Assembly (NCBI GenBank): GCA_963835575.1
Contig: CAWIGG010000004.1
Span: forward strand, 869,672 to 933,671
From: an uncultured Spirochaetota bacterium
Lineage (GTDB): Bacteria > Spirochaetota > Brevinematia > Brevinematales > JAOACQ01
Direction of reading: 5' to 3'
DNA: 64,000 bases
The translations under genes were made by a program, and so were the position numbers. Under the pieces are notes generated by a model. That model was not told the DNA's origin and searched no databases. It was given only the letters and a program-made list of their open reading frames with translations. Shown here one piece after another: positions 13,798-59,383 of the stretch (its first letter is position 1; each line of letters opens with the position of its first letter).

Positions 13798-14381
13798 GAC
13801 CCCAATTCGGCAGGATCAGCAGGATTTGTCAGGATTCTTGGAATAAAATTTCACAGGAAGACGGGAAGGCACGAAGGGAAATTAACGTCACTTTATTTTT
13901 AATTGGAAATGTTCATCATAATTTCTTTGTGGTAATATCCGATGGTGCACACGGATGATGCAGGTAATGTGGATTTGCACGGATCTTGGGATTGGGTACG
14001 ACTGAGGTAACCACAGATTTCACAGATTACATAGACAGGGAGCGAGGAATCGGAGGAAATTGTTTTGGAGTTGCGCACTGTGAACAAGGTATAGCCTCCT
14101 CCTAAAATCCCTATTCACAAATGTCCTATATCATATCCGGCTTCGAATAAAACTTTACAGGCATCGTTAAGTAATACTAAATCCTATAAATCCGCCTTCA
14201 TCCATGCAATCTGTGTGAAATGGGGTCGCTCATTAAGCTTTAATAAAACAAAAAGGACATCTCAATCAAAATCTCTCATCTACCGGGCGTAGCCCCCGAT
14301 TTCAGTCCTTTCCGTGAAATTCTGTGGTAGACTTCGCGTTTTCCTGTATAATTCTAAAAAAAATCCTGATTTATTGGGGTC
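13798..14381. repeat. Gene-less stack of nested inverted repeat modules built from 9/10-bp phased units
   Basis: Forward modules: A GACCCCAATTCGGCAGGAT.. (13798), B ACAGGAAGACGGGAAG (13853), C GTAATATCCGAT..CACACGGAT.. (13932), D AACCACAGATTTCACAGAT (14009). Reverse partners: 14171-14227, 14311-14328 (D'), 14332-14347 (B'), 14361-14381 (A'). Confidence 0.75.
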
Positions 14382-14494
14382 AATACTTAAAAGAATTTTA
14401 AAGGACAGAACTTTTCTTAATTTATTTTTGAATTTAAATTCAATCATTTGTATAATTTATACAATTGATTTATATTTTTATCAGGAATAGTATA

Positions 14495-15829
14495 ATGAAT
14501 AAGGATAAATCTACTCCGCTGTTTGAAAACATGAAGCATACGTTCAGGGCTTTCCGGAACAGGAATTACCGGCTTTTTTTCGGCGGCCAGGGTATTTCCC
14601 TCGTCGGGACCTGGCTCCAGCAGATCGCGATGGGCTGGCTCGTTTACAGTATGACAAACTCAAAATTTCTACTCGGGTTTGTCAGTTTTTCGGGCCAGAT
14701 ACCGCTTCTGTTCCTGACGCCGCTGGCCGGGGTCCTGAGCGACAGGCTGAACCGCCGGACAATTCTGATTATAACACAGACGCTTTCCATGGTCCAGGCT
14801 TTGATATTGAGCGTTCTCGTGTTGACAGGGAATATACAGGTATGGCATATCATAGTCCTGTCGATATTTCTGGGCACGGTAAACGGGTTTGATATGCCGA
14901 TACGTCAGGCGTTTGTCGTGGAAATGGTCGAAAAAAGAGAGGACCTCAGCAATGCCATTGCCCTGAATTCGGCCATGTTTAACGGAGCGCGTTTTATCGG
15001 TCCTTCCATCGGAGGTTTGCTCATCGCTGTTGTCGGCGAAGGGATGTGCTTTTTGCTGAACGGCATTAGTTATATAGCCGTTATTATCGCCCTGTTCCAG
15101 ATAAGGACAAAGTTCAAAAAAAGAGAAGTAAAAAAAGAAAAAATCTTAACTGAATTAAAGGAAGGTTTTAAGTACACATTCGGTTTTCCGCCTCTGCGCG
15201 ACATCATTCTTTTTATCGCGCTGGTCAGCCTGACGGCTATGCCCTATGCCGTCATCATGCCGGTCTTCGCGAAGGATATTCTCCATGGCGGGCCGCAGTC
15301 GCTCGGGTTTCTGATGACGGCTGTCGGCGCGGGCGCCCTTACGGGAGCGCTTTATCTCGCCTCGCGTAAAAACGTTCTGGGTCTTGGCAAAATCATTGCC
15401 GGGGCCGCGCTTTTTTTTGGAACAGGGCTGATTCTTTTTTCTATTTCCCGTCTGCATTGGCTTTCTCTGGTTATTCTCTATTTTACCGGGATCGGTATGA
15501 TGATACAGACAGCCAGCTGCAATACTTTACTGCAGACAATCACGGATGATGATAAACGGGGAAGGGTGATGAGCTTTTATTCCATGTCGTTCATGGGCAT
15601 GGCGCCCTTCGGCAGTCTTTTAGTAGGCTTTTTATCTGACAGGATCAGCGCGCCGGCAACCGTTGCAATCGGGGGTATTTGCTGTATTCTGGCCGGTGTA
15701 TTATTTTCCAGAAGGCTTCCAGATCTTCGAAAACTGATTCACCCGATTTATATCAGGAAAGGGATCATAAAGGAGATTGAGATCGGGCTTGAATCGGCCG
15801 CTCAGTTGACAAGGCCTCCGGACGCTTGA
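14495..15829 (+). CDS. MFS transporter (MFS_3/EntS-like)
   Basis: 12 TM pattern, RNYRLFFGGQGISLVGTW, AGVLSDRLNRR motif A, RGRVMS. Confidence 0.9.
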   Translation: MNKDKSTPLFENMKHTFRAFRNRNYRLFFGGQGISLVGTWLQQIAMGWLVYSMTNSKFLLGFVSFSGQIPLLFLTPLAGVLSDRLNRRTILIITQTLSMVQALILSVLVLTGNIQVWHIIVLSIFLGTVNGFDMPIRQAFVVEMVEKREDLSNAIALNSAMFNGARFIGPSIGGLLIAVVGEGMCFLLNGISYIAVIIALFQIRTKFKKREVKKEKILTELKEGFKYTFGFPPLRDIILFIALVSLTAMPYAVIMPVFAKDILHGGPQSLGFLMTAVGAGALTGALYLASRKNVLGLGKIIAGAALFFGTGLILFSISRLHWLSLVILYFTGIGMMIQTASCNTLLQTITDDDKRGRVMSFYSMSFMGMAPFGSLLVGFLSDRISAPATVAIGGICCILAGVLFSRRLPDLRKLIHPIYIRKGIIKEIEIGLESAAQLTRPPDA

Positions 15830-15835
15830 TTCTCT

Positions 15836-16000
15836 TTATGCCCGGCCGGCCACGCTTTTCATGTACTTCTTCGGTTTTTTAACAAACAAATCCCGGCAAT
15901 CCTTAGAACAGAAATAATAAGTCTTGTCGACAATTTCGATTTCGGCAAACGCATCCCATTTTTCCAGTTCCATTCCGCAAACGGGATCTTTTTCTTTCAT
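15836..16000 (-). CDS. YHS/TRASH-domain small metal-binding protein (54 aa, not in the ORF track)
   Basis: GGAGG RBS; MKEKDPVCGMEL...YYFCSKDCRDLFVKKPKKY; its own TTGACG-N17-TATAAT promoter on the minus strand at 16029-16057. Confidence 0.85.
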   Translation of the reverse strand: MKEKDPVCGMELEKWDAFAEIEIVDKTYYFCSKDCRDLFVKKPKKYMKSVAGRA

Positions 16001-16117
16001 AAAAACCTCCATCGATTAGATTATTTAAATTATAATTCCAGAAACTGTTTGCGTCAAGGCGGTACAACATTTGTTTCTATGCGTTAGAGGCCGGGTAAAA
16101 TAACAATGCTATTGATT

Positions 16118-16161
16118 TAAGGGCAGTTCCAAAAACTTTAAGGTTTTTGGAACTGCCCTTA
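16118..16161. repeat. 19-bp-arm perfect inverted repeat in a divergent promoter region
   Basis: TAAGGGCAGTTCCAAAAAC-tttaag-GTTTTTGGAACTGCCCTTA. Confidence 0.85.
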
Positions 16162-16170
16162 TAATAATTA

Positions 16171-16199
16171 TTGCTAAAAAACGAATAATTTATTATAAT
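16171..16199 (+). promoter_or_regulatory. Sigma70-type promoter for the hydrogenase operon
   Basis: TTGCTA-N17-TATAAT about 90 bp upstream of the first gene. Confidence 0.6.
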
Positions 16200-16290
16200 A
16201 TCCAGTTAGAGTTCATTGTCCCATAGAAGATTAGATCAATATTCACATCACTTAAAAATCACTGCATTTCTCTAATCCGAGGAGGAAAAC

Positions 16291-20893: not shown

Positions 20894-20995
20894 GCCGTCC
20901 CTTCGCAAGCTCAGGGCAGGCTATTGCGAGCGGAAATTTATCGTCATCGCAATAGTTTTACGCGCGAAGCAATGGTTCGACAGGCTCACCACGGC
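20894..20995. repeat. Cluster of REP-like short palindromes
   Basis: CCCTTCGCAAGCTCAGGGCAGGC, CTATTGCGA..TCGCAATAG and GGTTCGACAGGCTCACC, closed by GCCGT/ACGGC. A related copy lies at 32921-32946. Confidence 0.55.
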
Positions 20996-21048: not shown

Positions 21049-21813
21049 ATGTTCGAATCCGTAAAATCAAGGATCAGCCATGGTTTTCCATACATTCCGA
21101 ATATCCGGAAAGCGGGTGTGGACGAAAAATTCCGCGGTCTTCCATCATTAAAGAAAAATGTCTGTAAAGACTGCTCATCGTGCGTCGAGGTTTGCCCGAC
21201 CGGGGCCATCTCGCTTAAATCGTTCAGGATAGACATCGGCAAGTGCATCTTCTGCGGCGACTGTGAGAGGGAGTGTTCAAAAGGCGCTGTAAATTTTACA
21301 CCATTTCATAAAACGGCAGCCTCATCGCGGGAAGCCCTTATCGTTTCGGAAGGGGATTCTTCCGCCGATTTCGAGAAGAAGGCAATACAGATAGACGAAA
21401 AGATACGAAGTATCTTCGGAAGGTCGCTGAAGCTCCGGCAGGTCTCGGCCGGCGGATGCAGCGCCTGCGAGATGGAGCTCGGCGCCTGCTCGAACGTCAA
21501 TTTCGACATGGGGCGCTTCGGCATCGAGTTTACCGCCTCCCCCCGCCATGCGGACGGGATCGTCATAACCGGGCCTGTAACATTTAATATGGCTGAAGCC
21601 CTGGAAGACGCCCTGAGCGCAGTGCCGGAACCGAAGCTCATCATCGCCGTGGGAAGCTGCGCGATCAGCGGCGGGATTTTTCAGGACTCGCCGGCGATGA
21701 AGAGGGATTTTTTCGAGAAGCATAAAGTGGATTTGTATGTGCCGGGATGTCCCATCCATCCTTTGACGTTTATCAACGGACTGCTGGATTTTACAAGGGG
21801 CAAAAGGGATTAG
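21049..21813 (+). CDS. Fused 2[4Fe-4S] ferredoxin and NuoB-like small subunit (EhrS, HyfH/HyfI-like)
   Basis: CKDCSSCVEVCP and CIFCGDCEREC, then GGCSACEME, SPRHAD, AVGSCA, YVPGCP. Confidence 0.88.
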   Translation: MFESVKSRISHGFPYIPNIRKAGVDEKFRGLPSLKKNVCKDCSSCVEVCPTGAISLKSFRIDIGKCIFCGDCERECSKGAVNFTPFHKTAASSREALIVSEGDSSADFEKKAIQIDEKIRSIFGRSLKLRQVSAGGCSACEMELGACSNVNFDMGRFGIEFTASPRHADGIVITGPVTFNMAEALEDALSAVPEPKLIIAVGSCAISGGIFQDSPAMKRDFFEKHKVDLYVPGCPIHPLTFINGLLDFTRGKRD

Positions 21814-21949
21814 CCACGAGGCACGGAGGATGGGCTACGCCTGACAGATAAAAGCTCTATACTATGAATTCCTTTCTGTTTTATTAAAAATCATGATTCA
21901 ATCCCAATTTCACACAGATTGCACGGATGAGGCGGATTGACGCGGATTA
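21813..21949 (+). repeat. Forward-oriented phased repeat modules at the left boundary of the kinase insert
   Basis: GCCACGAGGCACGGAGG, TGGGCTACGCCTGACAGATAA, and CACACAGAT TGCACGGAT GAGGCGGAT TGACGCGGAT (near-identical to the reverse complement of 14191-14225). Confidence 0.75.
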
Positions 21950-22018
21950 TCTGTAGTAACTTATGTTTTGGCTTTTTCTAAAAAAACACTTTTTCAACAA
22001 TCTCGTAAAGCGGCGAAA

Positions 22019-23545
22019 TTACGCTAAAAGTAGACGTAACCACTTCTCTATTTCAGCATTTTCAAGTTTTTTCGTTTCTACTTCTCGTACATGCATAGCA
22101 ACTCTAGAGAGATTATATTCATTATAGAATTCGTTACTATCCAAAGCGTAATTTTCTTTATGCGGTCCACGAACTAAAGCAGAATCTTTAAATATAGCAA
22201 AATACCATTCTCCATAAATATCATCTTGCTTTTCTTTCCTTAAAATCAAATTCACGGAATATTCGTTCTTTGTACCACTTAAATTCATCACCCCAACCAA
22301 AATTATCAGTTCTTTATCGAAAATTATACCTTCAGGTTCTTGCATAACCATTCCATATTTTTGTTTCTGAAATTCTATAGATCTTCTTCTTCGTTCATCT
22401 TTATAATTAGCAATCCCATTCACATCAAAAAATGATATATCTAATGCTCGTTCCATAAAAGATACTCTTAGACTTTCTAAATTATTTCTTTTCCCATTTT
22501 TTATGATGAATTTTGCATTTTCTAAGTTTTTGTTCACAGACTCAACTAGAGAACATACAGAATTAATCAATTCATTGATAGAATAATTTAAATATCGCAA
22601 CTTCTCCTCATGTTCATCTTGTCTCTTTGAGCTTTTTGCCAATTCCTCTTCTTTTTTTCTAATAAGCTGATGAGCCATACTAGCAATCGACGTAGCTATA
22701 TTCGCGTCTTTTGTATTACTTTTAAGAAAATCGTTAAGACTCTTAAGTATTTCTTCATCATTTTTATATCGCTGGTCCTTTTTTTTATTTGACATCTTTA
22801 TGATTATTTCTTTTAATTTTATAGGAACATCGCTTCTATTTGTACTTAAATCCGGTAACGGTTCAAATAGATGACACTGTCTATAATCTTGTGGTGTTGC
22901 ACAAATATAGGGTTTCTTAAGTGTTAAGATTTCAAAGAACATTATCCCCATTGAATAAATGTCCATTGAAATCGTATTTGCTTCTCCAAGCCATGCTTCA
23001 GGAGACATATAAGCATAAGTCCCTGCACCTTTAAAAGAGAATGTTTTTGTTGATTCATCTACATATTTTGACATTCCAAAATCGCAAACCTTAGCTGTGC
23101 CATCCACATCAATTAATATATTATTCGGCTTCAAGTCTCTATGTATCACTTTTTTATGAGCATATTCCAATCCTTTCAATATATCTGTAAAAATACTATA
23201 GCATTTATCCAAAGGCAACATAACCTTCTGCGTTTTTAGAAATGCATCTAGGCTGCCATTAGGCATATATTTCATTACCAAATAAAAATAATCACCCGCA
23301 TCACTTTCTCCAGAATAGTAAGTACTTATTATATTAGCATGTGCTAGTGTGGCGGATATATCTATTTCTCTTTTTAAGGTTTGTCTATATTGCTCATCAA
23401 AGATAGGGGCAATTTTTATTGCCACTTTCGTTTTATTTATTAAATCATCAGATAGATAGACGTCGCCAAATCCACCTGCATTAATTTTTGTACCAAGCTC
23501 ATACTGTTCACTGCTTTCAGGACCTCGTAATTTATTCATGACCAC
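22019..23545 (-). CDS. Hanks-type Ser/Thr protein kinase with an unknown C-terminal region, AT-rich
   Basis: GGFGDVY, VAIK, HRDLKPNN, DFG, GTYAYMSPE, DIYSMG; no TM segment; visibly lower GC than its flanks. Confidence 0.92.
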   Translation of the reverse strand: MVMNKLRGPESSEQYELGTKINAGGFGDVYLSDDLINKTKVAIKIAPIFDEQYRQTLKREIDISATLAHANIISTYYSGESDAGDYFYLVMKYMPNGSLDAFLKTQKVMLPLDKCYSIFTDILKGLEYAHKKVIHRDLKPNNILIDVDGTAKVCDFGMSKYVDESTKTFSFKGAGTYAYMSPEAWLGEANTISMDIYSMGIMFFEILTLKKPYICATPQDYRQCHLFEPLPDLSTNRSDVPIKLKEIIIKMSNKKKDQRYKNDEEILKSLNDFLKSNTKDANIATSIASMAHQLIRKKEEELAKSSKRQDEHEEKLRYLNYSINELINSVCSLVESVNKNLENAKFIIKNGKRNNLESLRVSFMERALDISFFDVNGIANYKDERRRRSIEFQKQKYGMVMQEPEGIIFDKELIILVGVMNLSGTKNEYSVNLILRKEKQDDIYGEWYFAIFKDSALVRGPHKENYALDSNEFYNEYNLSRVAMHVREVETKKLENAEIEKWLRLLLA

Positions 23546-23624
23546 TTTTACTCCCTCATATGAAATTTGTATTACGTCTTACTTCATATAAGCAAATTTA
23601 ATATATGTGAATTTTCTCCCCTTC

Positions 23625-23653
23625 ATCTTAATAAAGCCCAATTCACCTGTCAA
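23625..23653 (-). promoter_or_regulatory. Shared accessory-gene promoter, copy 1
   Basis: Minus strand TTGACA-ggtgaattgggctttat-TAAGAT-gaa. Confidence 0.7.
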
Positions 23654-23679
23654 GACCGATATCGGGACGCAATAATCTG

Positions 23680-23834
23680 ATCCGTGAAAATCCGCATCAT
23701 CCGCCTAATCCGCGTGCCGAATCGGATCAGTACAATAAGGCGGCAATTATTATAGAATTACAATAGCTTAACAAAGGCATTGAAATGAAATAATTCTCTG
23801 TGCCCCTGTGTCTCGATAGCGAATTCTCTGTGGC
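23680..23834 (-). repeat. Reverse-oriented phased repeat modules at the right boundary of the kinase insert
   Basis: Reverse complement reads ATCCGATTCGG CACGCGGAT TAGGCGGAT GATGCGGAT TTTCACGGAT. Outer module CTCTGTGCCCCTGTGTCTCG..CTCTGTGGC. Confidence 0.75.
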
Positions 23835-23850
23835 GGTTTATCCTGTAATT

Positions 23851-24507
23851 CTATTTATCCTTCCATAGTGTCTCGCCCTTTATGAGCCATGAAACGCCGA
23901 AAGCCCATAGAGTGAATGATTCCAGAATCAAATCGGGTTTGATAATTGAAATTATTGAAGTCTTTAAAAAGAATTCATATATTCCAATCAAGATTATAGA
24001 AATGACTATTATGATACCGCAGGCTCTATATATTCTATTTCTCACTATTTTTTGACCGGTCATTATTTTGGCGTTGCTTTTTGTAAACAGGAAGAAGGAT
24101 ATAAAAGCCAGTATCCCGAAGAATAAGCCGGCGCATATAAAATGAATTACCCCGGAAATATGATCGCTGATCTGAAATGTCCCGACTATTACGGCCTGAT
24201 CACTTCCTGTAAATGTCGGAAACAGAGTCACTCCAAGAGCGCAGGCCCCGCAGATTGTCGCTATAATATCGTCAAAATTACCGTAACCTTTGTAAGAGAT
24301 TAAAAACAGGGCCAATCCGCATGTAATGCCGATAAAAACATCCCTCAAATTCGTATAATAATAACTGCTGATCGATTCCTGGATCGCTTTTCCCGCGATC
24401 AAACCGCCGATGAATAAAATAAACGGCAGGATAATCCCTAAAATACCGAGAATCCGGCGCATTGTTAAATACGATATTGTCAGACAATTGCTCTTTGGAA
24501 CAGGCAT
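23851..24507 (-). CDS. Membrane protein (DUF998-like)
   Basis: About six TM segments; ISYLTMRRILG, SISSYYYT, IHFICAGLFF, FGVSWLIKG. Confidence 0.7.
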   Translation of the reverse strand: MPVPKSNCLTISYLTMRRILGILGIILPFILFIGGLIAGKAIQESISSYYYTNLRDVFIGITCGLALFLISYKGYGNFDDIIATICGACALGVTLFPTFTGSDQAVIVGTFQISDHISGVIHFICAGLFFGILAFISFFLFTKSNAKIMTGQKIVRNRIYRACGIIIVISIILIGIYEFFLKTSIISIIKPDLILESFTLWAFGVSWLIKGETLWKDK

Positions 24508-24644
24508 TGTTTCCTCCTTAAAGTTTTAGGTATTACTTCTGATATAATGCAAATTACAGAAATTTAGAGATTGCCGGGCGATTTTGCCAAAAGTGTACTC
24601 GCCGCAGCCGGCAACTTGATTTTAGACGTTGTAAAGAAAAAGTG

Positions 24645-25109: not shown

Positions 25110-25123
25110 TTGTCAGCCGCTTT

Positions 25124-25462: not shown

Positions 25463-25695
25463 GAAGGGGCCTCCTGAACTGTCAATTATAAAAAATATAA
25501 CCATATCTTACTGATGATATAAAAAAATTACAATAAAATAAAAAATGCCGTATTTCCCGCGAAGATTTTCAATACAAAATTTCAACGGGATATTATTTCA
25601 CAGTCATATTATTTCAATTTATATTTCTGATCCGGAAAACTTTCAGATAAAACTGAAAATATTTCATTCAGGCCCCCATCCTTAATACGTAATGT

Positions 25696-25724
25696 TTGAT
25701 TTTTCCGCCGTTCCGTGCTAAAAT
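25696..25724 (+). promoter_or_regulatory. Sigma70-type promoter (extended -10) for the ehr operon
   Basis: TTGATT-N17-TAAAAT with TG just upstream of the -10. Confidence 0.55.
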
Positions 25725-25765
25725 TTTGAATTAGTTTTTTAGAGGGGCAGGTCATAGAGTAGAGT

Positions 25766-50300: not shown

Positions 50301-52323
50301 AGTAAGCCGCTTCCCGGATTCGGTCGTGATGAAATTTGTATGTGTCCCCATCAAGGCTGACCAGACCTTTTTCGATCGTCTCCGTGAGATCGGCAAGAGT
50401 TTCTTCAATGGGCTTCTCGGAAACAATGGACAATGTTTCAAGATCAAATCTGTTTCCTATGCATGAACATATCTTGATCAAATTCAGGGATTTTTCCCGT
50501 AGAGTGGAAATTATATCCGCCATGAATACGACAATATTGTCCGGGATCTGCATCTGTTCGATCAGGTTAAGATCCCATTTCCACCCGGTTTTAGGGTCGA
50601 ACTTGAAAATATCTTTATTGTAGAGGTTCTTGAAAAATTGAATGACAAAAAAGGGATTTCCCGCGGTCTTTTTGTAGACAATCTCTGTCAGGGCCATCGA
50701 TTCACCGGCTTCGCACCGGAGCGTGTTCATCAGCATAATATTGACTTGGTTTATATCGAGAGGAGCGAGCTCTATGCTGTTTATAGCTTTGCCTCTTTTC
50801 CGGATTTCGTCCAGCGTGAGCGTCAGCGGATGATACAGACTTACCTCGTTGTTCCTGCATGCCCCGATTAATAACAAATACTTTGTACCGTTGCCGGCCA
50901 TTATGTTTTTTAAAAAATTCAGGCTTGCAAGGTCTGCCCACTGGAGATCGTCTAAAAAGAGGACCAGGGGATGTTCTTTCGCGGAAAAAATCCCGATAAG
51001 GTTTTGAAAAACCAGGTTAAATCTGTTCTGAGTCTCCTCCGGACCGAGTATCGGCACTTCCTTCTGTTTTCCGATAACCAGCTCCATTTCAGGAAAGATT
51101 TCAGTAATAATCTTACCGTTAGAACCGATGGCGGAAAGAATCTTATCCTTCCACAGGTTGATTTTCTCATTGCTTTCGGTGAGTATCTGCCTGACAAGGC
51201 TTTGAAAAGCCTGGATAATGGAGCTGTAAGGGACATCCTTTCTGAACTGGTCAAATTTCCCGAAAATGAAATAACCCCTCTTTAAAACAATAGGTTTATA
51301 TAATTCATTCACGAAAGCAGTTTTGCCGATTCCAGGCATTCCTGACACAATTACGATCTCACTTGTGCCTCTGCTAATCCGCTCGAATGATTGCAGCAGA
51401 GCATCAAGTTCCTTTTCCCGGCCTATGATAATCGGGGGAATATTAATTTCAACTGGAATATCCTTTGTAGCAATGGCAAATTCCTCTATTTTATCTTTTT
51501 GTCCAATCTGATTCAGGCAACTAATCATATCTGCCATTAAGCCCTGACAGTTTTGATATCTTTCCTCAGGGTTCTTTGCCAGCAGTTTCATGATAATACT
51601 GGAAATGACCCTGGGGATGGATGGATTAAGCTTGTCCGGCTGGATTGGCTGGCGTGCAATATGCGAATGAATCAACTCCATAGGATCCTTTGCTTCAAAT
51701 GGGCGTGTGCCGGTGAGCATTTCATAAAAAGTTATACCCAGAGAATAAATATCTGTACGGTAATCAACACTCCGGTTCATTCTGCCTGTCTGCTCAGGGG
51801 ACACATAGGGAAGTATTTCTTCGATGACTATCGGGTCATAGAGCTCATCATTTGCATGCGTCAGAACTGTTGATATGCCGAAATTTGTTATTTTGACCTT
51901 TTTCTGCTTCAGGTTGATTAAAATATTATCTGGTCTGATATCCATATGTATGACATGATTTCTATGAAGCATGCTGAGGCTTTCTGAAAGCTGTAATCCG
52001 ATTTGTAAAAACAATTCTAAATCAATCTTCTCCTTCTTTAAAATTTCTTTCAGAGGAATGCCGTTAAAGTTTTCCTCCACGATGGCATAATTGTTTTTAT
52101 GTTCAATCAGATCAAGGGATTTTACAACACCTTCAGCATCGATTCTTTTGATAAGATTATATTCCTGTTTGAATCTTACGATTTCTGATAATGAGGGATT
52201 CTTAGCTTTTAATACTTTTACGATGACGGTCCGAGGCTCGTTTTCTTTTTGTCCACTGTAAACTATGAAGTTCCTCATTTCATGTAATTTTTCCTTCAGG
52301 ATGTAATTTGCAAACCGTTCCAT
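47398..52323 (-). CDS. Ser/Thr (pseudo)kinase-AAA ATPase-helical-GAF-GGDEF diguanylate cyclase
   Basis: HMDIRPDN/KITNFG, SPEQTGR, GMPGIGKT, FLDDLQWAD, GNPFF, GAF (IYLENN), DIDNFK..NDKYGH, RNSD I-site, RYGGEEF. Confidence 0.9.
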   Translation of the reverse strand: MERFANYILKEKLHEMRNFIVYSGQKENEPRTVIVKVLKAKNPSLSEIVRFKQEYNLIKRIDAEGVVKSLDLIEHKNNYAIVEENFNGIPLKEILKKEKIDLELFLQIGLQLSESLSMLHRNHVIHMDIRPDNILINLKQKKVKITNFGISTVLTHANDELYDPIVIEEILPYVSPEQTGRMNRSVDYRTDIYSLGITFYEMLTGTRPFEAKDPMELIHSHIARQPIQPDKLNPSIPRVISSIIMKLLAKNPEERYQNCQGLMADMISCLNQIGQKDKIEEFAIATKDIPVEINIPPIIIGREKELDALLQSFERISRGTSEIVIVSGMPGIGKTAFVNELYKPIVLKRGYFIFGKFDQFRKDVPYSSIIQAFQSLVRQILTESNEKINLWKDKILSAIGSNGKIITEIFPEMELVIGKQKEVPILGPEETQNRFNLVFQNLIGIFSAKEHPLVLFLDDLQWADLASLNFLKNIMAGNGTKYLLLIGACRNNEVSLYHPLTLTLDEIRKRGKAINSIELAPLDINQVNIMLMNTLRCEAGESMALTEIVYKKTAGNPFFVIQFFKNLYNKDIFKFDPKTGWKWDLNLIEQMQIPDNIVVFMADIISTLREKSLNLIKICSCIGNRFDLETLSIVSEKPIEETLADLTETIEKGLVSLDGDTYKFHHDRIREAAYSLIPDHEKTVMHYKIGNMTLKKTEGKKLFDKIFYIVGHLNRGISLISRAKEKIRLARLNFLACKKAKNSTAYASAAVYARTADALLPHDCWIKHYDLAYELSMERMECEYLTLNFTEAEKIFKEIMKNAKTDNEKTRGYILMILLYGSMAKYKESLALGIEAMRMIGSEIPEHVTKGMIVSKLIRLYFQFKKSKIKIEDIIDLPPATDPKNVIWHLLAINTGTVAYYYDTNIWSYVIIEGVSKILNHGNYEYSGLTLSTFGSILGAGLGFYQQGYRFAVTGMKVNEKLDSKKSIGLTIWSFAAFVQHWTKHAKYDLDLIREGYKNCLEVGNVIFAHHAVNVLCATRIILGDGIDDIMEENEKYKSFQLGSKDPFVALNYRINAQMLLCLKGLTDTPGHLNTADFDEEDVMRNYRKSGLFLGIFFLLLIKIRVYYLFGEYDNCVSISAELYDLVVRREVARGYLHITEANFYSSLAMAALYPEAKWLGRRKYKRIIRLNQKRMKLWAKNCPENFLHKYLLVEAEMALINHQFKKAKNFYDEAIKSANENGYTQNEGIASERAALLMKKMKNIESTKQYMIKAHSCYAKWGALSKIRQLETKYPELLGNVITYDAKPAPDSTGLTSLSRVKGMQALDISTIIKTSLAISSEINLGSLLEIIMKLSIENAGAQKGFMILKKEEDNKLYIEAENSNEKEIIVLKSIPVDNSVNLSVAIVNYVSKTKQPVILNDATSEGAFTQDKYIIEHKPKSILCTPIIHKGEVTGIIYLENNLTTNAFTPERLELLQILSSQAAISIENAELYKRAVTDGLTGIYNRTFFDNYLMKCLSNAKRYKRNLCLLMIDIDNFKQFNDKYGHQTGDKVLKSVAQMINNSLRNSDLVARYGGEEFVAVLTETKVEDAKIVAEKIKNSIEENSVEHLKSTIKKKLNVTVSIGIAEFIENENRIELIERADKNMYRAKKVGKNAIAW

Positions 52324-52371: not shown

Positions 52372-55300
52372 CTACATCTTTTTTAATATAACAAGGGACA
52401 CATCATCGTTCTTTTTATATCCCTGAAGATCTTCCAGAATTTTATCTTTGATGTCATTTGGTCTCAGTCTTCCGGAATTCTTCAGGATTTCAGCCAATTT
52501 CTCCTCTGAGAACATCACTCCTTCCTTGTTCCTTGCTTCGGTGATGCCGTCGGTGAACAGGAGAAGGATGTCCCCCGGATTCAGGTTGAGTTCACAGTCG
52601 ATATTCTGCTGATTCATGTCCCAGGGTGAGAGCCATATCCCTTCGGACGGCGTTGTTTCCACAGTGCCGCTTGATGAGCGGTAAACGATAATGTCCTGAT
52701 GCAGACCTGAATACACGGCCTTTCCGTCTTTTCCGATGGAGAAGGCTGTTATTGTCATATATTTGTCTTCATTCATTTTATTCATATTGTATTTTATAGC
52801 CTCGTTCACCGTGGATAATAAATCAGACGGCTTTAAATCGGGATATTTTCTGACAAGCGCCTGTATTGTGGTCTGGACCATCATCATAACAAGACCTGCC
52901 GGAACCCCATGACCGGAAACATCCCCGATAATGACCCAGCTTTTGCTTCCGCTGTTAATGACGTCATAATAATCCCCGCCGACATCGCTGGTGGGTTTCA
53001 TGTACACGGTGATATCGAACCCTTCAATCGAGGGGCTGTCCGGGAGCAAAGCGGATTGAATAGTGGCGGCGATTTTCATCTCTGTTTCCAGCTTTGCCGC
53101 GTTTTCCCTGAGTGCGACAAGCCGGGAGTTTTCTATCGAAATGGCGGCCTGGGTGGAAAGGATCTGCAGCAGTTCCAGGCGTTCGGGAGTAAACGCATGC
53201 GTGGTCAGATTATTCTCCAGATAAAGAATGCCCGCCGTGATTCCCTTGTACCTGATGGGCGTACAGAGGATCGATTTAGGATGGTTTTTATTTATGTAGG
53301 GATCGTTTATGAACTGTTCATCACCGGACGCATCGCTCAACACTATGTTCTCTCCGGTTTTATTGACGTAATTGACAATCGATACCGAAAACGAGCTATT
53401 GCCTTCAACGGGTACCGATTGTAAAACCTCGGCCGCTTCTTCGATCCTGCCGGCCGCTTCAATATAGAGCTTATTATCCGACTTATTTTCCAATATCAGA
53501 AAACCGCGCTGCGCGCCGGCATTTTCAATGGAAAGCTTCATGATATTCATCAGAAGCTTTCCCAGGTCAATTTCACCGGATAATGACTGCGATGTTTTTA
53601 TGACCGTTGTCAAGTCGAGGGAACGGGACCCTGATGAAGAAGATCCTGAGTTTGATCCGGTATCGGCTACAGAGGCTAGACTGGAAGTATTCCTCATGAT
53701 ATTGCTGATGAGCTCCGGATATTTCTCCTCAATATCCTTTAACTTGGCTTCGGCTCCCCATCTCTTATAGCAATAGTGCGCTTCTTTCATATAATTTCCT
53801 GCCCTTTCTAAATTAAGCGTTCTTAACATAAGAAGCGCGGCCCGTTCATAAGCGATCGCCTCATTCTGCTTATAGCCGTTCTCATGGGCCGATTTGATGG
53901 CCTGATCGTAAAGGCTTAAGGACAGTTTAAGGTTCCCTTTCAATTGCGCCAGTTCCGCCTCGATGATAAGATATTTGTGAAGGAAATTTTCATGGCAGTT
54001 ATCAGCCCAGATCTTCATTTTTTTCTGATTGTTTTTGATGATTTTTTCATATTTCTTTTTCTCTCCGTCCCCGGCATCCGGGTATAAAGATGTCAGTACC
54101 AATGAAGAATAAAAATTGGCTTCGGCGATGTGAAGATTGCCGATGGCAATTTTCTTTTCAGCCAGCTGATCCAATTCAAAGACAAACGGCAGACATTCCG
54201 AGTGCTTCCCAAAAAGATAACGGGCGCTGATCAGAGCCAGGGATAAATAATAGACGCCGAGCAGGTTCTTTTCCTCCCTGTAATATTGTATCTGCTTTTC
54301 CTCGTCAAATTCTCCGGAGTTCAATCTGCCCCTCTCATCCGTAAGGCCTTTCAGGCACAGGCATTGCTGTGTTTTTTCAATATAGGCATGCGCGACGAAC
54401 GGGTCTTTGCTGCCCATGAGAAAATCCTTATATTTCCCGTATTCTTCCAGAATTTCATCGATGTTGTCTCCCAGCATAAGGCGGGTCATGATGAGAAGGT
54501 TGATGGCATGCCCGCTGTAAAGCAGATCGCCTTCTTCCAGGCCATGCTTGTAAGCTTCCCTGTAGTAATCAAGGTCGTATTTCGCATGTCCCTTCCAGTG
54601 CTGGATCATCATGGCAAATGCCAATTCTATCCGGCATCTGTTTCTTACGCTCGCGATCTTTTCCTTCAGCTTTAAGGCCGTTTCGCCGAACCGGTAGCCC
54701 TGGTCATAAAGACCGATCCCGGATCCGATAATGGAGCCCAGGGCGCTCAAAGTAAAGGGGGATGACTCATAATTCCCGTATTTGAGTACATTGATCGCGC
54801 CTCCGATGACGGAATAACTGTATAAATTGGCATCGATAAAATAGAGCACCAGATTTATGCTGTTCCGTAAAAAGTGATACGCCAGAATTTCCGGATCTGT
54901 TGTCAATGGAATATTGATAATATCTTCTATCTTTCTCCTGCCGAGCGTAAAATAAAGCCTGAGCAATTGCATCAGTATCATCCCGTTGCTTGCTTTCTTC
55001 GGCAGCTTGATGCCGATCATTTTCAGGCCTTCATAGCCCACTTTGAGCGCCTCCATGTAATTTCCCTGGCTGGTATAGAGTATGACCATGGTATTATAGG
55101 CGTTTGCCTTGTCGACATTGGAATTTGCATTATCAATGATTGTTTGAAATATTCTTTCCGCTTCATTGAAAACATGTGTCAGATATTCGCATTCCATTCT
55201 TTCCATATGCAGGGAATAGGCCAGCTGATAATGGTTCTCCCAGCCGTCATCCGGAAGAAGTTCAATGCCCGTTTTCAAATAAGCGGCGGCGGAAGCATAA

Positions 55301-57534
55301 GCCGTTGAATTTTTTGCCTTTTTGCCGGCCATTAGATTTAATTCCGCGAATTTCAGCTTTTCATCGGGGTCTGATACAAGCCGGATCCCTTTATTGATCT
55401 GATCGACGATATAAAAAATCTTTTCGTATAGATATTTTTCTTCGGTTTTTTGGAGAACGCTTTTACCGATCAGGTAGTGCAATTGCGTCTTTTCATCGTC
55501 TTCCATGAGAGAATAAGCGGCTTCCTGTATCCGGTCATGATGAAATTTATAGGCGTTTCCATGCAGACTGACCAGATCTTCATTAATGGCGGATGTGAGA
55601 TCGGCCAGGGTTGCTTCGATCGATTTTCCGGAAACAATGGACAGCGACTCAAGATCAAACCGGTTCCCGATGCATGCGCATATTTTCAATATATCCTGGG
55701 TGTTTTTGGGGAGACTGGAGATTTTCCCCGCCATAAATTCTACAACATTACCGGTGACCTGCATTTCTTCAATCTTATTTATGTCCCATTCCCAGCCGGT
55801 CTGGGGGTTTAATTCCAGGATCCGGTTGTCATAAATCGTTTTTAAAAATTGAATCACGAAAAACGGGTTTCCGCCGGTTTTCTTGTGGATCAGCCCTGTC
55901 AGGGGCATTGATTTTTCCGCTTCACAGCGGAGGATTTTTGTTATCATGATATTTATGAATTTCTCTTCCAGCGGGTTGAGAAGTATTTTATTGACTTTTT
56001 TTCCGCTTTTTTGAATTTCATCGATGTTAATCGAAAGCGAATGATACTCGCTGACTTCATTATCCCGGTATGCTCCGATCAGAAACAGAAATTTTGTGTC
56101 CCGGTTCGTTATGATGGTTTTCAGCAGCTTTAAACTCGCCAGATCGGCCCATTGAATGTCATCCAAAAAAATGGCCAGGGGATGGTCTTCGGCAGTAAAA
56201 ACATTGATAAAATTTTGAAACACCAGGTTGAATCTGTTTTGAGATTCTTCCGGTCCGAGTACAGGCACTTCAGGCTGTTTGCCGATAATAAGCTCCAGCT
56301 CCGGTATAACGGATGTGATGACTCTTCCGTTCGGGCCGAGGGAAGAGAGCAGCTTTTCTTTCCATTCGGTAATTCTCTCTTCGCTTTCGGCAATTATCTG
56401 CCTGATAAGGCTCTGGAATGCTTGAATGATGGAACTGTACGGAACGCCTTTTCTGAGTTGTTCGTATTTGCCGAAGATAAAATATCCCTTTCTTGCCACG
56501 ATGGGTTTATGTATTTCATTAATCAGGGCGGATTTTCCGATGCCCGGATGTCCCAAAACAAGAATCATCTCCCCGGATCCTTTGCCGGCCGTTTCGAAGG
56601 CTTCCATCAAAATCTCGAGTTCTTTTTCCCGGCCGACAATGATTTGAGGGATGTTTAATTTTAATGAAATATCCTTTGTTCCGAGGGGGAATTCGTCAAT
56701 CTGGCCTTTCTGATGTATCTGATTTAAGCAGGCGCTTATGTCCTCTTTTAAACCAAGGCTGTTTTGATATCTTTCCTCCGGCGTCTTTGACAGCAGCTTC
56801 ATTATAATATCTGAAATGACGGCCGGTACGGCAGGATTCAATTCCTTGGGCGGCCGCGGCTGACGCGCGATATGCGAATGAATGATTTCCATAGGGTCTT
56901 TTGATTTGAATGGGACCTCGCCGGTCAGCATTTCATAAAAGGCTATTCCGAGCGAATACAGGTCAGTCCTGTAATCGACGCTTCGGTTCATCCTGCCGGT
57001 TTGCTCCGGAGACATATAATAAAGCGTTCCCTGTATGACATCGGGGTTGTATATTTCATCATTGGAATGCGTTAAAACTGTTGAAATCCCGAAATCGGTG
57101 ATTTTGACCTTGCCTTCCTTCAGATTGATCAGAATATTATCCGGCTTAATATCCAGGTGAATAATATTGTTTTTATGAAGTATTCCGAGGCTGTCGGATA
57201 GTTTTAATGCAATCTGCAGGAAGGCGATGATATTGATTTTTTTTGTTTTGATGAGTTCTTTTAAGGAAATTCCGTCGAAATCCTCTTCAATGATGGCATA
57301 GGCGTCATGATACTTAACCAGATCGTATGTTTTGATAATTCCGTCCACATTGAGATTTTTTACCAGGCTGTATTCCTGCTTGAACCTGGCGACTTCCGAA
57401 GGCGTGGGGTATTTGGTTTTCAGAACCTTAATAATGACGGTATTGGCTTCATTCTCTTTTTTACCGCGGTAAATAATGGAGTTTCTTGTTTCATGAATTT
57501 TTTCCTGGAGGGTGTATTCCGAAAATTTTTCCAT
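52372..57534 (-). CDS. Ser/Thr kinase-AAA ATPase-helical-GAF-SpoIIE/PP2C phosphatase
   Basis: HLDIKPDN/KITDFG, GHPGIGKS, FLDDIQWAD, GAF, VGGDYYD, IGDVSGHG, FTDGITE, DDVSL. Confidence 0.9.
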   Translation of the reverse strand: MEKFSEYTLQEKIHETRNSIIYRGKKENEANTVIIKVLKTKYPTPSEVARFKQEYSLVKNLNVDGIIKTYDLVKYHDAYAIIEEDFDGISLKELIKTKKINIIAFLQIALKLSDSLGILHKNNIIHLDIKPDNILINLKEGKVKITDFGISTVLTHSNDEIYNPDVIQGTLYYMSPEQTGRMNRSVDYRTDLYSLGIAFYEMLTGEVPFKSKDPMEIIHSHIARQPRPPKELNPAVPAVISDIIMKLLSKTPEERYQNSLGLKEDISACLNQIHQKGQIDEFPLGTKDISLKLNIPQIIVGREKELEILMEAFETAGKGSGEMILVLGHPGIGKSALINEIHKPIVARKGYFIFGKYEQLRKGVPYSSIIQAFQSLIRQIIAESEERITEWKEKLLSSLGPNGRVITSVIPELELIIGKQPEVPVLGPEESQNRFNLVFQNFINVFTAEDHPLAIFLDDIQWADLASLKLLKTIITNRDTKFLFLIGAYRDNEVSEYHSLSINIDEIQKSGKKVNKILLNPLEEKFINIMITKILRCEAEKSMPLTGLIHKKTGGNPFFVIQFLKTIYDNRILELNPQTGWEWDINKIEEMQVTGNVVEFMAGKISSLPKNTQDILKICACIGNRFDLESLSIVSGKSIEATLADLTSAINEDLVSLHGNAYKFHHDRIQEAAYSLMEDDEKTQLHYLIGKSVLQKTEEKYLYEKIFYIVDQINKGIRLVSDPDEKLKFAELNLMAGKKAKNSTAYASAAAYLKTGIELLPDDGWENHYQLAYSLHMERMECEYLTHVFNEAERIFQTIIDNANSNVDKANAYNTMVILYTSQGNYMEALKVGYEGLKMIGIKLPKKASNGMILMQLLRLYFTLGRRKIEDIINIPLTTDPEILAYHFLRNSINLVLYFIDANLYSYSVIGGAINVLKYGNYESSPFTLSALGSIIGSGIGLYDQGYRFGETALKLKEKIASVRNRCRIELAFAMMIQHWKGHAKYDLDYYREAYKHGLEEGDLLYSGHAINLLIMTRLMLGDNIDEILEEYGKYKDFLMGSKDPFVAHAYIEKTQQCLCLKGLTDERGRLNSGEFDEEKQIQYYREEKNLLGVYYLSLALISARYLFGKHSECLPFVFELDQLAEKKIAIGNLHIAEANFYSSLVLTSLYPDAGDGEKKKYEKIIKNNQKKMKIWADNCHENFLHKYLIIEAELAQLKGNLKLSLSLYDQAIKSAHENGYKQNEAIAYERAALLMLRTLNLERAGNYMKEAHYCYKRWGAEAKLKDIEEKYPELISNIMRNTSSLASVADTGSNSGSSSSGSRSLDLTTVIKTSQSLSGEIDLGKLLMNIMKLSIENAGAQRGFLILENKSDNKLYIEAAGRIEEAAEVLQSVPVEGNSSFSVSIVNYVNKTGENIVLSDASGDEQFINDPYINKNHPKSILCTPIRYKGITAGILYLENNLTTHAFTPERLELLQILSTQAAISIENSRLVALRENAAKLETEMKIAATIQSALLPDSPSIEGFDITVYMKPTSDVGGDYYDVINSGSKSWVIIGDVSGHGVPAGLVMMMVQTTIQALVRKYPDLKPSDLLSTVNEAIKYNMNKMNEDKYMTITAFSIGKDGKAVYSGLHQDIIVYRSSSGTVETTPSEGIWLSPWDMNQQNIDCELNLNPGDILLLFTDGITEARNKEGVMFSEEKLAEILKNSGRLRPNDIKDKILEDLQGYKKNDDVSLVILKKM

Positions 57535-57791
57535 AATTTTCCCCTTGTTTGATATCAAGATTAATCATGTGATGGAGCCTTAGAAACAAATTAAATGATT
57601 TTTGAATTATGCGCAGTTAATTTTTAAAGTCTGTATTTCTTGATAAGAGATTTTATATTCCAATTAAAAATATAGCAATAGCTAAATTTTAAATAATCAT
57701 GACAATCAGGGAATTCAAAAAACGCTGAAATTCTCGGGGACGATCGATTTTTCTGGCAAAAATATTCGGGTTGGTTTTTCTTCGGTAAGTT

Positions 57792-58361
57792 TTACCAATT
57801 CTCGTTCTTATAAATCAGCGACATAAACTCGCTGCGCGTCGTGTGCGACGTCCGGAAGCCGCCCAGAACGGAAGAGGTGATCATGTTCGAATTCTGCTTT
57901 TCCACGCCGCGCATCATCATGCAGAGGTGGCGCGCTTCGATGACAACGCCGACGCCTTCCGTGTCGATCGAGTCGTAAACCGCGCGGGCGATCTGGTCCG
58001 TCAGGCGCTCCTGGATCTGAAGGCGGCGGGAATACATGTCGACGATCCTGGCGAGTTTGCTGGCGCCGAGTACCTTCCCCTTGGCGATATAGCCGATATG
58101 GCAGCGGCCGAAAAAGGGCAGCATATGGTGCTCGCACATGCTGTATAGTTCGATGTCTTTTATTATGATCATATTGTTGGTTTCCTGCTGGAAGATGGCC
58201 TTATTGATAACTTTTTTTAAATCGGTTTTATATCCGGAAGTCAGAAACTTAATTGATTCGGCAAAACGGTGAGGCGTTTTCAAAAGTCCCTGCCTGTCCG
58301 GGTCCTCGCCCATCTCAATGATCAACTCGCGCGCGAGGCTTTCGACTTTTTTAATGTCCAT
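57792..58361 (-). CDS. folE: GTP cyclohydrolase I
   Basis: [42 protein letters not shown]. Confidence 0.96.
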
Positions 58362-58872
58362 TGCTTAAAATCCTCCTCAGTTTCTTTGTATATCCCAATA
58401 AAGGTTTCATATCGTTCTCTTTTAAATTTTCAGCGATCTGGCCGATGGTTAATCTCCATTCTGGAAACGACATTTCATTATCCAGTTCAAAGAGCGGTAT
58501 CGCCAGAAAGGGCCTTTTCAGGATATGGGGATCGGGGATGTCCAGGTCCTTGTCATGGACGGAAAGCCGGCCAAAGACAAGAATATCCAGGTCTATGGGT
58601 CGTGATGCGGATTTATCCCCGGTCCTTTTCCGGCCCAGTTTTTCCTCGATCATCCTCAGGATCAGAAGTTTAAGGTCGGTGGGGGAGTAATGCGTTTCAA
58701 TCTTCACAACTCCGTTATAATATAAGAGCTGATCCGGCCTGTCAACCGGTTCAGTCTTATAAAAGGTCGAAATCCCGGTGATATTGACATCTTTAGAAAG
58801 CAGATCCAGGGCTTCGATGATGTTTTTTTCCGGTTCAATATTGGAGCCCATGCCGATATAAGCGGTTTCCAT
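58351..58872 (-). CDS. folK: 6-hydroxymethyl-7,8-dihydropterin pyrophosphokinase
   Basis: [39 protein letters not shown]. Confidence 0.92.
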
Positions 58873-58873
58873 T

Positions 58874-59230
58874 TTATTTTTCCTTTTCCCTGTAAATTTC
58901 AACGCCGACGCTTCTGGCGAAGCGGAGCGCGGAAGGCTTTTCCACAAGGACCTGTACTGCCTTCACGCCGCTGAATTCCAGGCAGATTTCCGAGATTTTT
59001 TCCGCCAGGGCTTCAATGAGAAAAAACTGTGAAGATTCTACAGTGCTGAAAACCTGTTTTTTAATGGCGCGGTAATCCACCGTGTCCTCAAAACGGTCTG
59101 TCCCGCAGGCTTTTTTCAGATCGGCGGACAGAGTGATATTAATAATGACATCCTGTTTTTCCCGCCTTTCCTCCTCGTTAATCCCGATGATGCAGCGGGC
59201 CAGCAGGTCTTTAATATGAATTTTATCCAT
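58874..59230 (-). CDS. Dihydroneopterin aldolase/epimerase family (FolB or FolX)
   Basis: IIGINEEER..Q, TVDY, FFLIEALAE, EKPSALRFARSVGVEI. Confidence 0.85.
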   Translation of the reverse strand: MDKIHIKDLLARCIIGINEEERREKQDVIINITLSADLKKACGTDRFEDTVDYRAIKKQVFSTVESSQFFLIEALAEKISEICLEFSGVKAVQVLVEKPSALRFARSVGVEIYREKEK

Positions 59231-59284
59231 AATGACTCCTCCGATCCTGTTTTATCTATCCGGGGATTTCTAGCTTACAGGTTG

Positions 59285-59383
59285 GAACCACAGATTACAC
59301 CGATTTTACAGATATTTCTCTAATAAGTCTGGATTTCTATTTCCAAAACTTATAATCTGTGTTTTCTGTGAAATCTGTGGTTC
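59285..59383. repeat. Minimal empty inverted pair of module D
   Basis: GAACCACAGAT TACACCGAT TTTACAGAT, about 40 bp, then ATCTGTGTT TTCTGTGAA ATCTGTGGTTC. Confidence 0.8.

Follow-up and report, generated by a model that had tools for sequence, protein, structure and literature searches.

Phased nonamer arrays in a Brevinematales genome: a candidate REP/MITE-like repeat family associated with GxxExxY nuclease genes

The 64,000 nucleotides considered here (the window) come from an uncultured Spirochaetota bacterium of the Brevinematales (GCA_963835575.1), whose 4.39-Mb genome (G000) is assembled in seven contigs; the window is C4:869672–933671. It holds short oriented arrays of phased 9- to 10-nt units which either face each other with no gene between them or bracket accessory genes, and the question which they raise is whether they are the ends of a gene-capture system, as a preliminary description of the window proposed, or something else. 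Judging from sequence comparisons, we put at roughly one in two the probability that they belong to a repeat family of the type of repetitive extragenic palindromes (REP) or miniature inverted-repeat transposable elements (MITE), in which the phased units are recognition sites, probably for a nuclease of the GxxExxY family. It is an even bet, too, that the modules of the window represent this intergenic repeat family in three forms: solo ends, inverted pairs lacking a gene, and composites of nested modules. The same inverted-array architecture also encloses GxxExxY (TIGR04256/PF13366) genes, and the window copies appear to be gene-less derivatives.

On re-reading of the sequence every array named in the preliminary description was found in its place. 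Chains of at least three GAT-type or GAAG-type cores at 9/10 spacing were sought in the genome with shuffled sequence as the control; there are 191 GAT-type chains against 6 in shuffles and 41 GAAG-type chains against none, which bears out the earlier opinion that these are no slippage microsatellites but a real, oriented, genome-wide family. An unbiased detector of exact 5-mer triples at 9/10 spacing returned 223 against 11, with 168 of the 223 lying outside genes as roughly called. Some 230 oriented arrays of three or four units are thus present in the genome, compared with 6–11 in shuffles, and most are intergenic. Among the head sequences GACCCCAATT (A type) occurs 33 times against about 3.7 expected per strand, TAATATCCGAT (C type) 55 times against about 2.0, and AACCACAGAT 62 times against about 5.1, three or four units of 9–10 nt trailing the head in nearly every copy. 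The detector lists ten arrays in the window, and further degenerate ones are visible by eye; that at 50553–50575, within a gene, is probably a chance match.

The units are direct, non-palindromic repeats composed of a variable filler of 2–3 nt, C(A/G)C, and a subfamily-specific part of 4 nt (GGAT, AGAT, GAAG, AGAG, TAAG, GAAT and others). A common 9-9-9-10 spacing had been read in four separate arrays, and this proved wrong: three arrays with TAATATCCGAT-type heads, at 13930–13992 (+), 23672–23735 (-) and 42380–42445 (-), read 13-9-9-10 counted from the CCGAT of the head, the array at 13948 having one degenerate unit, while the spacing is 9-9-10 at 21900–21952 and 13-9-10 at 33016. The shared phasing comes from homology, the arrays being copies of a single module family, and not from convergence. 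Modules of the A and C types with GGAT units often lie inside longer units of about 170–230 nt, in which a head and its array are followed by tail AGGATTTAGTTTT and then, after about 70 nt, by a GGGCTACGCC(C/T)G module; a further A head comes about 60 nt beyond that. Arrays of different types are nested within one another at 13798–14381 of the window and at C2:667000–667520 and C2:77480–77980. A separate sequence of about 26 nt (core TTCGGCAAGCTCACCAC) breaks into arrays of several types in either orientation, and is present in 34 copies at up to two mismatches against 9 for its reversed control; in the window it lies at 20976–20992 and within the array at 32911–32966, and a related GC-rich variant exists.

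Nine loci of the genome match TIGR04256, one being interrupted by a stop codon. All nine of these GxxExxY genes lie between an upstream forward and a downstream reverse array. The units are of the CACGAAG type around the genes at C2:137458, C5:453298 and C2:747052, of the CGCTAAG/CGCGAAT type at C6:78869, C6:112750 and C4:157456, of the AACCACAGATT type at C5:384643 and C6:107905 (the latter a pseudogene), and of the CACAGAA type at C2:377382; the protein subclades agree with these unit types. None of the nine matches is in the window, as the preliminary description had noted. All of the GxxExxY proteins of G000 belong to PF13366 (PD-(D/E)XK), and the motif residues D, E and K do not vary among the eight copies of this genome. 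In a wider set of 50 stop-free GxxExxY genes, six from G000 and 44 from a cross-species scan, D and E are invariant and K is nearly so. An AlphaFold (AF2) model of the protein (pLDDT, the predicted local distance difference test score, 93.3) has a nuclease fold, a fold search with it gave only weak PD-(D/E)XK matches (Cas4 SSO0001, lambda exonuclease and Hjc), and a search of the PDB by sequence gave no significant match.

The association extends far beyond this genome. A pattern scan with one genome per species gave at least 583 confirmed GxxExxY relatives, the best 80 of which come from Planctomycetota, Verrucomicrobiota, Bacteroidota, Ignavibacteriota, Chlorobiota, Pseudomonadota, Acidobacteriota, Chloroflexota, Nitrospirota and others. 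Their genes are often preceded by CACCACGAAG-GA-CACGAAG-AG-CACGAAG, with an inverted copy past the stop codon. A heptamer of the form C(A/G)(C/T)NNN(G/T/A) repeated at least three times within 160 nt was found in the flanks of 47 of the 50 homologues, from many phyla, as against two of 44 control windows taken 700–860 nt away. The statement in the preliminary description that similar nonamers flank GxxExxY genes elsewhere is therefore confirmed. When unit types are placed as labels on the protein tree they require 17 changes, against a mean of 23.8 for shuffled labels, and none of 200 shuffles was as low; the tree itself does not track taxonomy. We also looked for other recurrent open reading frames (ORFs) as partners of the arrays, and downstream of them only one insertion sequence (IS) fragment family and the GxxExxY genes recur. 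A 416-aa ORF which recurs inside pairs was rejected as a partner, being an IS256/Mutator-family transposase unrelated to the arrays.

It is through the AACCAC-headed (D) family that the window is most directly tied to these nuclease genes. This family forms 28 inward pairs of less than 900 nt in G000 and has two distinguishable ends, one of which bears a promoter-like TTGAAA, 18 nt, TATAAT (11 of 12 matches) between the upstream array and the GxxExxY start. Conservation extends some 40 nt past the arrays at both ends, so the heads are internal landmarks and not the ends of the element. The D-type element of the window occupies about 59248–59425, between adh_short and folB, with arrays at 59285–59313 (+) and 59355–59383 (-) and a conserved outer flank of about 40 nt on each side. 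Both ends and the outer flanks of this pair match the cassettes at C5:384643 and C6:107905, and it is a gene-less copy of the GxxExxY cassette. From the start of folB to the stop of adh_short there are 204 nt in G000 compared with 12–28 nt in congeners G002, G003 and G004; the extra DNA is the D-type element, and this copy was therefore inserted relative to the congeners.

When the window is compared feature by feature with a GxxExxY cassette, inverted pairs of headed arrays with at least three units are found at 59285–59313/59355–59383, 21903–21950/23680–23735 and 33018–33075/42388–42440; these are gene-less or enclose other genes, and ends shared with a gene-bearing copy are seen for the AACCAC family only. 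No gene-bearing copy of the GACCCCAATT or TAATATCCGAT modules was found in G000.

Forty related genomes were compared, including four of the same genus, two of these being in 2 and 4 contigs. The motif GGAT-N5/6-GGAT-N5/6-GGAT occurs 157 times in G000 and its reversed control not at all, while the four congeners have 4, 5, 0 and 1 copies; some genomes of the same order have 15–37 GGAT arrays. Inward GGAT pairs are present in G013 and G022, and the latter also has a AACCCAATT-type head. A GxxExxY match above the cut-off was obtained in six of the eight relatives with at least ten GGAT arrays and in five of the 32 with fewer, the genomes being kin and not independent samples.

On these grounds, and with REP and subterminal-repeat systems as the model, one might picture the following. 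The units would be binding sites for a protein; the binder would be the GxxExxY nuclease, working in trans on the model of a REP-associated tyrosine transposase (RAYT) with REP or of a transposase with subterminal repeats; and the elements would be copied or maintained through these sites. Accessory genes found beside arrays would have accumulated jointly with them in variable intergenic DNA, with no dedicated capture step.

Several observations weigh against this. The GACCCCAATT- and TAATATCCGAT-headed GGAT modules have no adjoining cognate GxxExxY gene in G000, and such a gene lies within 700 nt at only one of 80 metagenome loci retrieved with a CACGGAT-array pattern. G008 and G025 have 12 and 19 GGAT arrays and no GxxExxY match (G025 is 73% complete). 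The unit type often switches among close proteins, for example from GAAG to AGAG, so protein and site need not match strictly. The copies have diverged, the best paralogue of the unit at 14092–14316 being 84.5% identical, against 99.4–99.9% for copies of the IS256-family element, and nothing in the sequence suggests that array elements moved very recently. Target-site duplications are not readable because the DNA of the congeners is only about 70–77% identical to that of G000. Finally, a bias of the arrays to the downstream side of genes in sense orientation, described below, could point to a role as RNA. The IS256/Mutator-family element itself (about 1.4 kb, with the 416-aa transposase, e.g. 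C2:1248547–1249943) is present in about 35 copies, and their near identity indicates a very recent expansion.

The modules of the window stand at four loci, and at all four the forward arrays lie on the left and the reverse arrays on the right, as had been described. The first is a nested composite. It opens with an A-type module at 13798–13842 (+), head GACCCCAATT and three CAGGAT units at spacing 9-10, followed by a GGAAG/CGAAG-type array of three units at 13852–13878 (+), read directly, whose unit type is that found around the GxxExxY genes C2:137458 and C5:453298. A C-type module at 13932–13990 (+) has head TAATATCCGAT and CGGAT-type units at 13-9-9-10, one of them degenerate, and a D-type head AACCACAGATT with CACAGAT units occupies 14009–14035 (+). 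Next comes a long A-type unit on the minus strand (14092–14316), with a GGGCTACGCC module, a spacer of about 60 nt, head and array at 14171–14228, tail AGGATTTAGT and about 100 nt more; its best paralogue is C4:995844–996069 (84.5% identity over 226 nt). Reverse modules read directly at 14300–14381 (-) close the composite: a TACCACAGAA array (14300–14329), CGAAG/GGAA units (14330–14347), and a GACCCCAAT head with one CAGGAT unit (14360–14381). As reported, neither this composite nor the element at 59285–59383 contains a gene, the nearby major facilitator superfamily (MFS) gene (14465–15829) lying beside the composite.

The second locus begins at 21813–21950 (+) with CACGAGG/CACGGAGG units, a GGGCTACGCC module (21832–21841), a spacer, and an A-like head AATCCCAATT with four units at 9-9-10 (21903–21950). 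It continues with a Ser/Thr protein kinase gene at 22019–23545 (-) (Pkinase 2.4e-47), whose product resembles the defence kinases PD-T4-6 (7.7e-60) and mad6 (1.1e-68). About 135 nt upstream of the kinase start is a C-like module at 23680–23735 (-), head TGATCCGATT and four units at 13-9-9-10, and beyond it, read directly, a CACAGAG-type array at 23793–23839 (-) with head AACCGCCACAGAG, broken by a short insert.

At the third locus a GGAAG-type array broken by an insert of about 27 nt (32911–32966, +) is followed at 33018–33172 (+) by a C-type module with tail AGGATTTAGTTTT (33018–33075), a AACCACGAAG array (33118–33145) and a GGGCTGCGCCCGG module (33160–33172). The genes between the arrays (33225–42185, all on the minus strand) specify an AriA/OLD-like ATPase (33225–34934), a Type IIG/ISP restriction-modification enzyme (35127–38219), an RlmL-like methyltransferase (40284–41402) and a helix-turn-helix (HTH) and Gp49 pair (41536–42185). 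On the far side are an A-type module at 42285–42334 (-), head GACCCCAATT and four units at 9-10-9, and a C-type module at 42388–42440 (-), head TAATATCCGAT and four units at 13-9-9-10. The domain matches agree with the earlier assignment of a kinase to 21813–23834 and of defence genes to 32911–42440. The RlmL-like gene has a neighbour of the same kind at 42468–43607 (-), 2184 nt away; their 3' ends share 300 nt at 96% (40297–40596 and 42481–42780), and the HTH/Gp49 pair and two array modules stand between them. The fourth locus is the D-type element already described. Inside the pairs of the window there is, as had been said, no transposase. As regards integron gene cassettes, a domain scan of 49 window ORFs turned up nothing integrase-like, intI not having been sought across the genome. 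An IS66-family transposase gene lies outside them at 62021–63478 (+), with a 27-nt inverted repeat (61950–61976/63469–63495, 89% complementary).

Are the units sites or stems? Within an element the two arms are 0.82, 0.84 and 0.79 identical in three data sets, and between elements of the same unit type 0.79, 0.81 and 0.83. The arms are no more alike within than between elements; units and register are therefore conserved, and complementarity is not. Conservation of unit sequence without pairing in turn favours sequence-specific recognition, that is, protein-binding sites, and the earlier suggestion of protein-binding arrays gains by it, since units and phasing are kept while the filler is not complementary between arms. 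Folding gave mixed results: the gene-less D element, taken as RNA of the transcribed strand, forms a long hairpin of -48.4 kcal/mol (z -5.5, none of 200 shuffles as good), the 600-nt composite region 13790–14390 is not significantly structured (z -1.29), and a consensus structure of 14 long A/C units shows nothing past one 4-bp hairpin. A head-to-tail pairing seen by eye, of GACCCCAAT with the TTGGGGT before the GGGCTACGCC module, is unsupported by the fold of the 14-unit alignment. With Rfam 15 the window gave only a NiCo riboswitch at gathering thresholds, and 20 long A/C units gave nothing at E <=1.

The position of the arrays relative to genes was scored along each array's own direction: 53 are tandem sense, 42 convergent, 21 tandem antisense and 17 divergent, the spacers of the genome being 1272 tandem, 351 convergent and 502 divergent by approximate gene calling. 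The preferred place of the arrays is the 3' side of co-directional genes, which they have in common with REP elements. A replication-strand bias was rejected; array orientation does not track the regional gene-strand majority.

With respect to orientation, neighbouring arrays less than 1 kb apart are arranged inward in 24 cases, outward in 3, and in tandem in 11 and 10. Merging of the arrays gave 200 clusters, of which 85 have forward arrays only, 102 reverse arrays only, 12 are inward pairs and 1 is mixed. Where neighbouring pure clusters lie no more than 6 kb apart, 27 are inward, 10 outward, 11 and 16 tandem; for those 1–6 kb apart the figures are 17 inward, 10 outward, 9 and 14 tandem. Pairing is therefore strong over the length of an element without a gene and weak over distances of gene size, and short pairs that enclose no gene account for most of the inward excess. 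At the metagenome loci an inward partner lies within 250 nt for 42 of 80 arrays (median gap 27 nt) compared with one of 79 on the outer side. Heads within 15 kb of each other are 26 inward, 16 outward, 18 and 16 tandem. We also considered that an A end and a C end might together make a two-ended element; 13 A-C, 9 A-A and 4 C-C pairings, given 77 A and 75 C heads, are what chance would produce.

About 20 array pairs of all types contain no ORF of 50 aa or more. Of 64 ORFs listed for array pairs, 45, from 17 pairs other than those of the window, were scanned as possible cargo, leaving out five IS256-family copies, two window ORFs and 12 ORFs of less than 70 aa. Matches to Pfam at E <=1e-5 were obtained for 21 of the 45, with 24 having none. 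Six of the matches are transposases; others are a further kinase, a further Type ISP enzyme accompanied by a SocA-like antitoxin, a PIN protein, and a DNA methylase together with DpnD/PcfM. The arrays evidently sit in variable DNA. The neighbours of arrays at the metagenome loci include panB, transaldolase, TsaD-like and ABC-transporter genes.

Comparison with the congeners does reveal empty and filled sites, as had been anticipated. In G001, G003 and G004 the macB-like gene (ending at 13785 in the window) is followed by about 120 nt and then by the 2Fe-2S gene (16291), the composite 13798–14381 and the MFS gene being missing; G002 carries two other genes at this site. Likewise G001 and G004 have the neighbours of 21790–25765 but lack the segment itself, and the spacer between folB and adh_short is a third such difference. 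Precise empty sites for 13798–14381 and 21813–23839 could not be drawn, the congeners being too diverged and having other DNA there. The hydrogenase gene, which ends at 20879, and the folE-HPPK-folB block, which starts at 57792, are immediate neighbours in G002, G003 and G004. The approximately 37 kb between these points in G000 (20880–57791) are a mosaic of translocated core genes (a Mrp/complex-I-like operon, BipA) and accessory genes. Because the whole of this region is rearranged in G000, absence of the bracketed genes from the congeners is not specific to the brackets. One public DNA run (X1, share 0.11) yielded short contigs identical to the window with no joint at any module, and is uninformative on polymorphism.

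How, then, do the alternatives fare? The preference for the 3' side keeps alive an RNA explanation, which we consider unlikely and yet the strongest of the rivals. Inverted arrays would pair in a transcript, and the stem would be processed, with RNase III as one possible agent in analogy to the intervening sequences of 23S rRNA, or would stabilise or terminate the upstream mRNA in the manner of REP hairpins; the elements may still be mobile, the selected feature being the RNA stem. The stable fold of the D element, its place inside the co-directional gene row from adh_short to folB, and the preference for sites behind co-directional genes all count in its favour. The genome also has one four-helix-bundle gene (the single match to TIGR02436/PF05635, Avd-like; C6:2193–2513), of a family named after 23S rRNA intervening sequences, and tandem 14-nt GCTAACAGCCAGAA-type repeats lie on both sides of it. 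That gene is, however, not inside an rRNA gene, an Rfam scan of its locus giving no rRNA nor anything else. Furthermore, arm complementarity is no higher within than between elements, the composite is not significantly structured, the long A/C units have no consensus structure past one 4-bp hairpin and no Rfam match, and in the D cassette the best promoter-like site falls between the upstream array and the start codon, so that the mRNA of the gene would lack the 5' arm. Gene capture or mobilisation, in which inward arrays are the ends of a unit moved by a trans-acting factor and any intervening DNA becomes cargo, is distinctly improbable in our estimation. It can draw on the absence of 13788–16280 and 21790–25765 from the syntenic sites of congeners, on a cargo sample with six transposases and five restriction-modification, toxin-antitoxin or related genes, on the recurrence of a kinase and a Type ISP enzyme among the 45 ORFs, and on the inward excess of clusters up to 6 kb (27 against 10). 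Against it are the weakness of that excess at 1–6 kb, the small inward excess and random A and C pairing of heads, the rearrangement of all of 20880–57791, the position of the MFS gene beside and not inside its composite, and metagenome copies beside what are housekeeping genes; five of the pairs merely hold copies of the highly active IS256-family element. Taken with the REP-like 3' preference, these points leave the gene-capture system of the preliminary description unsupported.

The two remaining explanations are less probable again. Were the arrays host-owned, immobile regulatory or architectural sites for a chromosomal protein (a transcription factor, a nucleoid protein or a CsrA-like GGA binder), then the 9/10-nt phasing with conserved cores, the biased location relative to genes and the GGA contained in GGAT units would be accounted for. 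We regard this as very improbable given the 157 GGAT arrays as against 0–5 in four congeners, the coexistence and nesting of many unit types, the fact that a nuclease gene which has spread horizontally, and whose tree departs from taxonomy, takes the same arrays with it, and the insertion of one copy into a spacer of 12–28 nt. Least probable of all is that some IS or MITE family already known, and present in this genome, has the arrays as its ends. G000 is certainly rich in IS elements (IS256-family with about 35 copies, DDE_Tnp_1 IS5-like, IS481-like and IS66), some of which lie between arrays; but the IS256-family copies share only their own 1.4 kb or so while their flanks differ, no ORF family recurs beside GGAT arrays, the REP/RAYT-like Y1_Tnp locus of the genome is flanked by GTAG palindromes and not by nonamer arrays, and full-text searches gave no description of the arrays. 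A REP/MITE-like family with protein-binding units remains the explanation that we prefer.

Other features of the window deserve brief mention. The NiCo riboswitch lies at 596–674 (+), scores 38.8 bits, above the Rfam gathering score, and is upstream of an ORF at 803–1777. A perfect-type palindrome of 29 nt at 16111–16168 contains GGGCAGTTCCAAAAAC, a motif which also occurs beside array modules at C5:38298, C6:299384 and C4:483655. Direct repeats of 57 nt (63–84% identical) precede three minus-strand genes, at 23611–23667, 44383–44439 and 45159–45215, and may be a shared promoter or leader. Two adjacent giant paralogues on the minus strand, 47398–52323 and 52372–57558 (1641 and 1728 aa), have kinase, AAA_16, TPR and GAF domains; at the C-terminal end one has GGDEF and the other a SpoIIE phosphatase domain.

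What would follow for the nucleases is a broader and more tentative suggestion, one that we expect would sooner fail than hold: GxxExxY proteins may be the trans-acting nucleases of a widespread undescribed class of repeats, a PD-(D/E)XK counterpart of RAYT/REP, whose subfamilies would each be specific for phased 9-nt units, whether the nucleic acid is double- or single-stranded, would spread array pairs without genes through genomes, and would now and then take along defence genes situated between two arrays. The family PF13366/TIGR04256 is very common in bacteria and has no assigned function, and the link to arrays turns the question of its role into direct experiments. An entry in a 2012 survey (PMC3424549) gives the function of PF13366 as 'Unknown'. 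Our full-text literature searches turned up no paper on the nonamer-array element and no account of GxxExxY function, although curator notes in databases may mention the repeats; the arrays appear to be little studied. Gene-less array copies can reach hundreds per genome. If the nuclease is indeed their partner, bacteria would have arrived at the REP/RAYT way of life a second time and independently, and there would be an explanation for intergenic repeats which confuse the calling of genes in many metagenome-assembled genomes. Annotators may take the arrays as markers of variable intergenic regions with defence genes and IS elements.

Among known systems, the 23S rRNA intervening sequences with a four-helix-bundle gene (PF05635/TIGR02436) offer a small gene flanked by repeats which can pair; unlike them, no rRNA is present in the window or around the TIGR02436 gene, and arm pairing shows no sign of selection. 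The short dispersed repeats of cyanobacteria are reportedly very small mobile repeats found inside other repeats (Elhai et al., 2008). It is the insert of about 26 nt with the TTCGGCAAGCTCACCAC core, and not the arrays, which resembles these, though sequence and host differ. Subterminal repeats are known at the ends of Tn7, Mu and the eukaryotic CACTA and hAT transposons. The array pairs share with MITEs their inverted terminal repeats, small size and lack of coding capacity, and with MITEs and subterminal-repeat transposons generally the gene-less elements of 70–500 nt with inverted ends derived from a gene-bearing form, the two distinguishable ends (AACCAC), several short direct repeats near each end of the kind that suits a transposase binding at more than one site, and insertion into a short spacer. 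They differ in that the only gene-bearing relatives carry a PD-(D/E)XK nuclease and no canonical transposase, and in that the copies have diverged.

The closest parallel is with REP/RAYT. In those systems hundreds of short intergenic repeats, which form inverted hairpin doublets (REPINs), lie mainly downstream of genes and have expanded in particular lineages, a few copies enclosing a small nuclease- or transposase-like gene between inverted repeats. G000 seems to possess something of this sort in its own right: a Y1_Tnp (IS200-like/RAYT-like) ORF at C2:500549–501097 (locus L278 650–1198, -) is flanked by the GTAG-headed palindromes GTAGAGACG...CGTCTCTAC, with more palindrome copies nearby and nonamer arrays adjoining the locus. 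Neither of the two PF01797 matches in the genome is flanked by nonamer arrays in the RAYT manner. Unlike REP and REPIN, the repeat of the arrays is three or four direct, non-palindromic units of 9–10 nt and not a GTAG-headed palindrome, and unlike RAYT the gene which they enclose codes for a PD-(D/E)XK nuclease (PF13366) and not an HUH Y1 enzyme (PF01797). In their abundance, inverted pairing, placement on the 3' side of genes, enclosure of a small nuclease gene and lineage-specific expansion, the nonamer arrays are nonetheless like REP/REPIN-RAYT.

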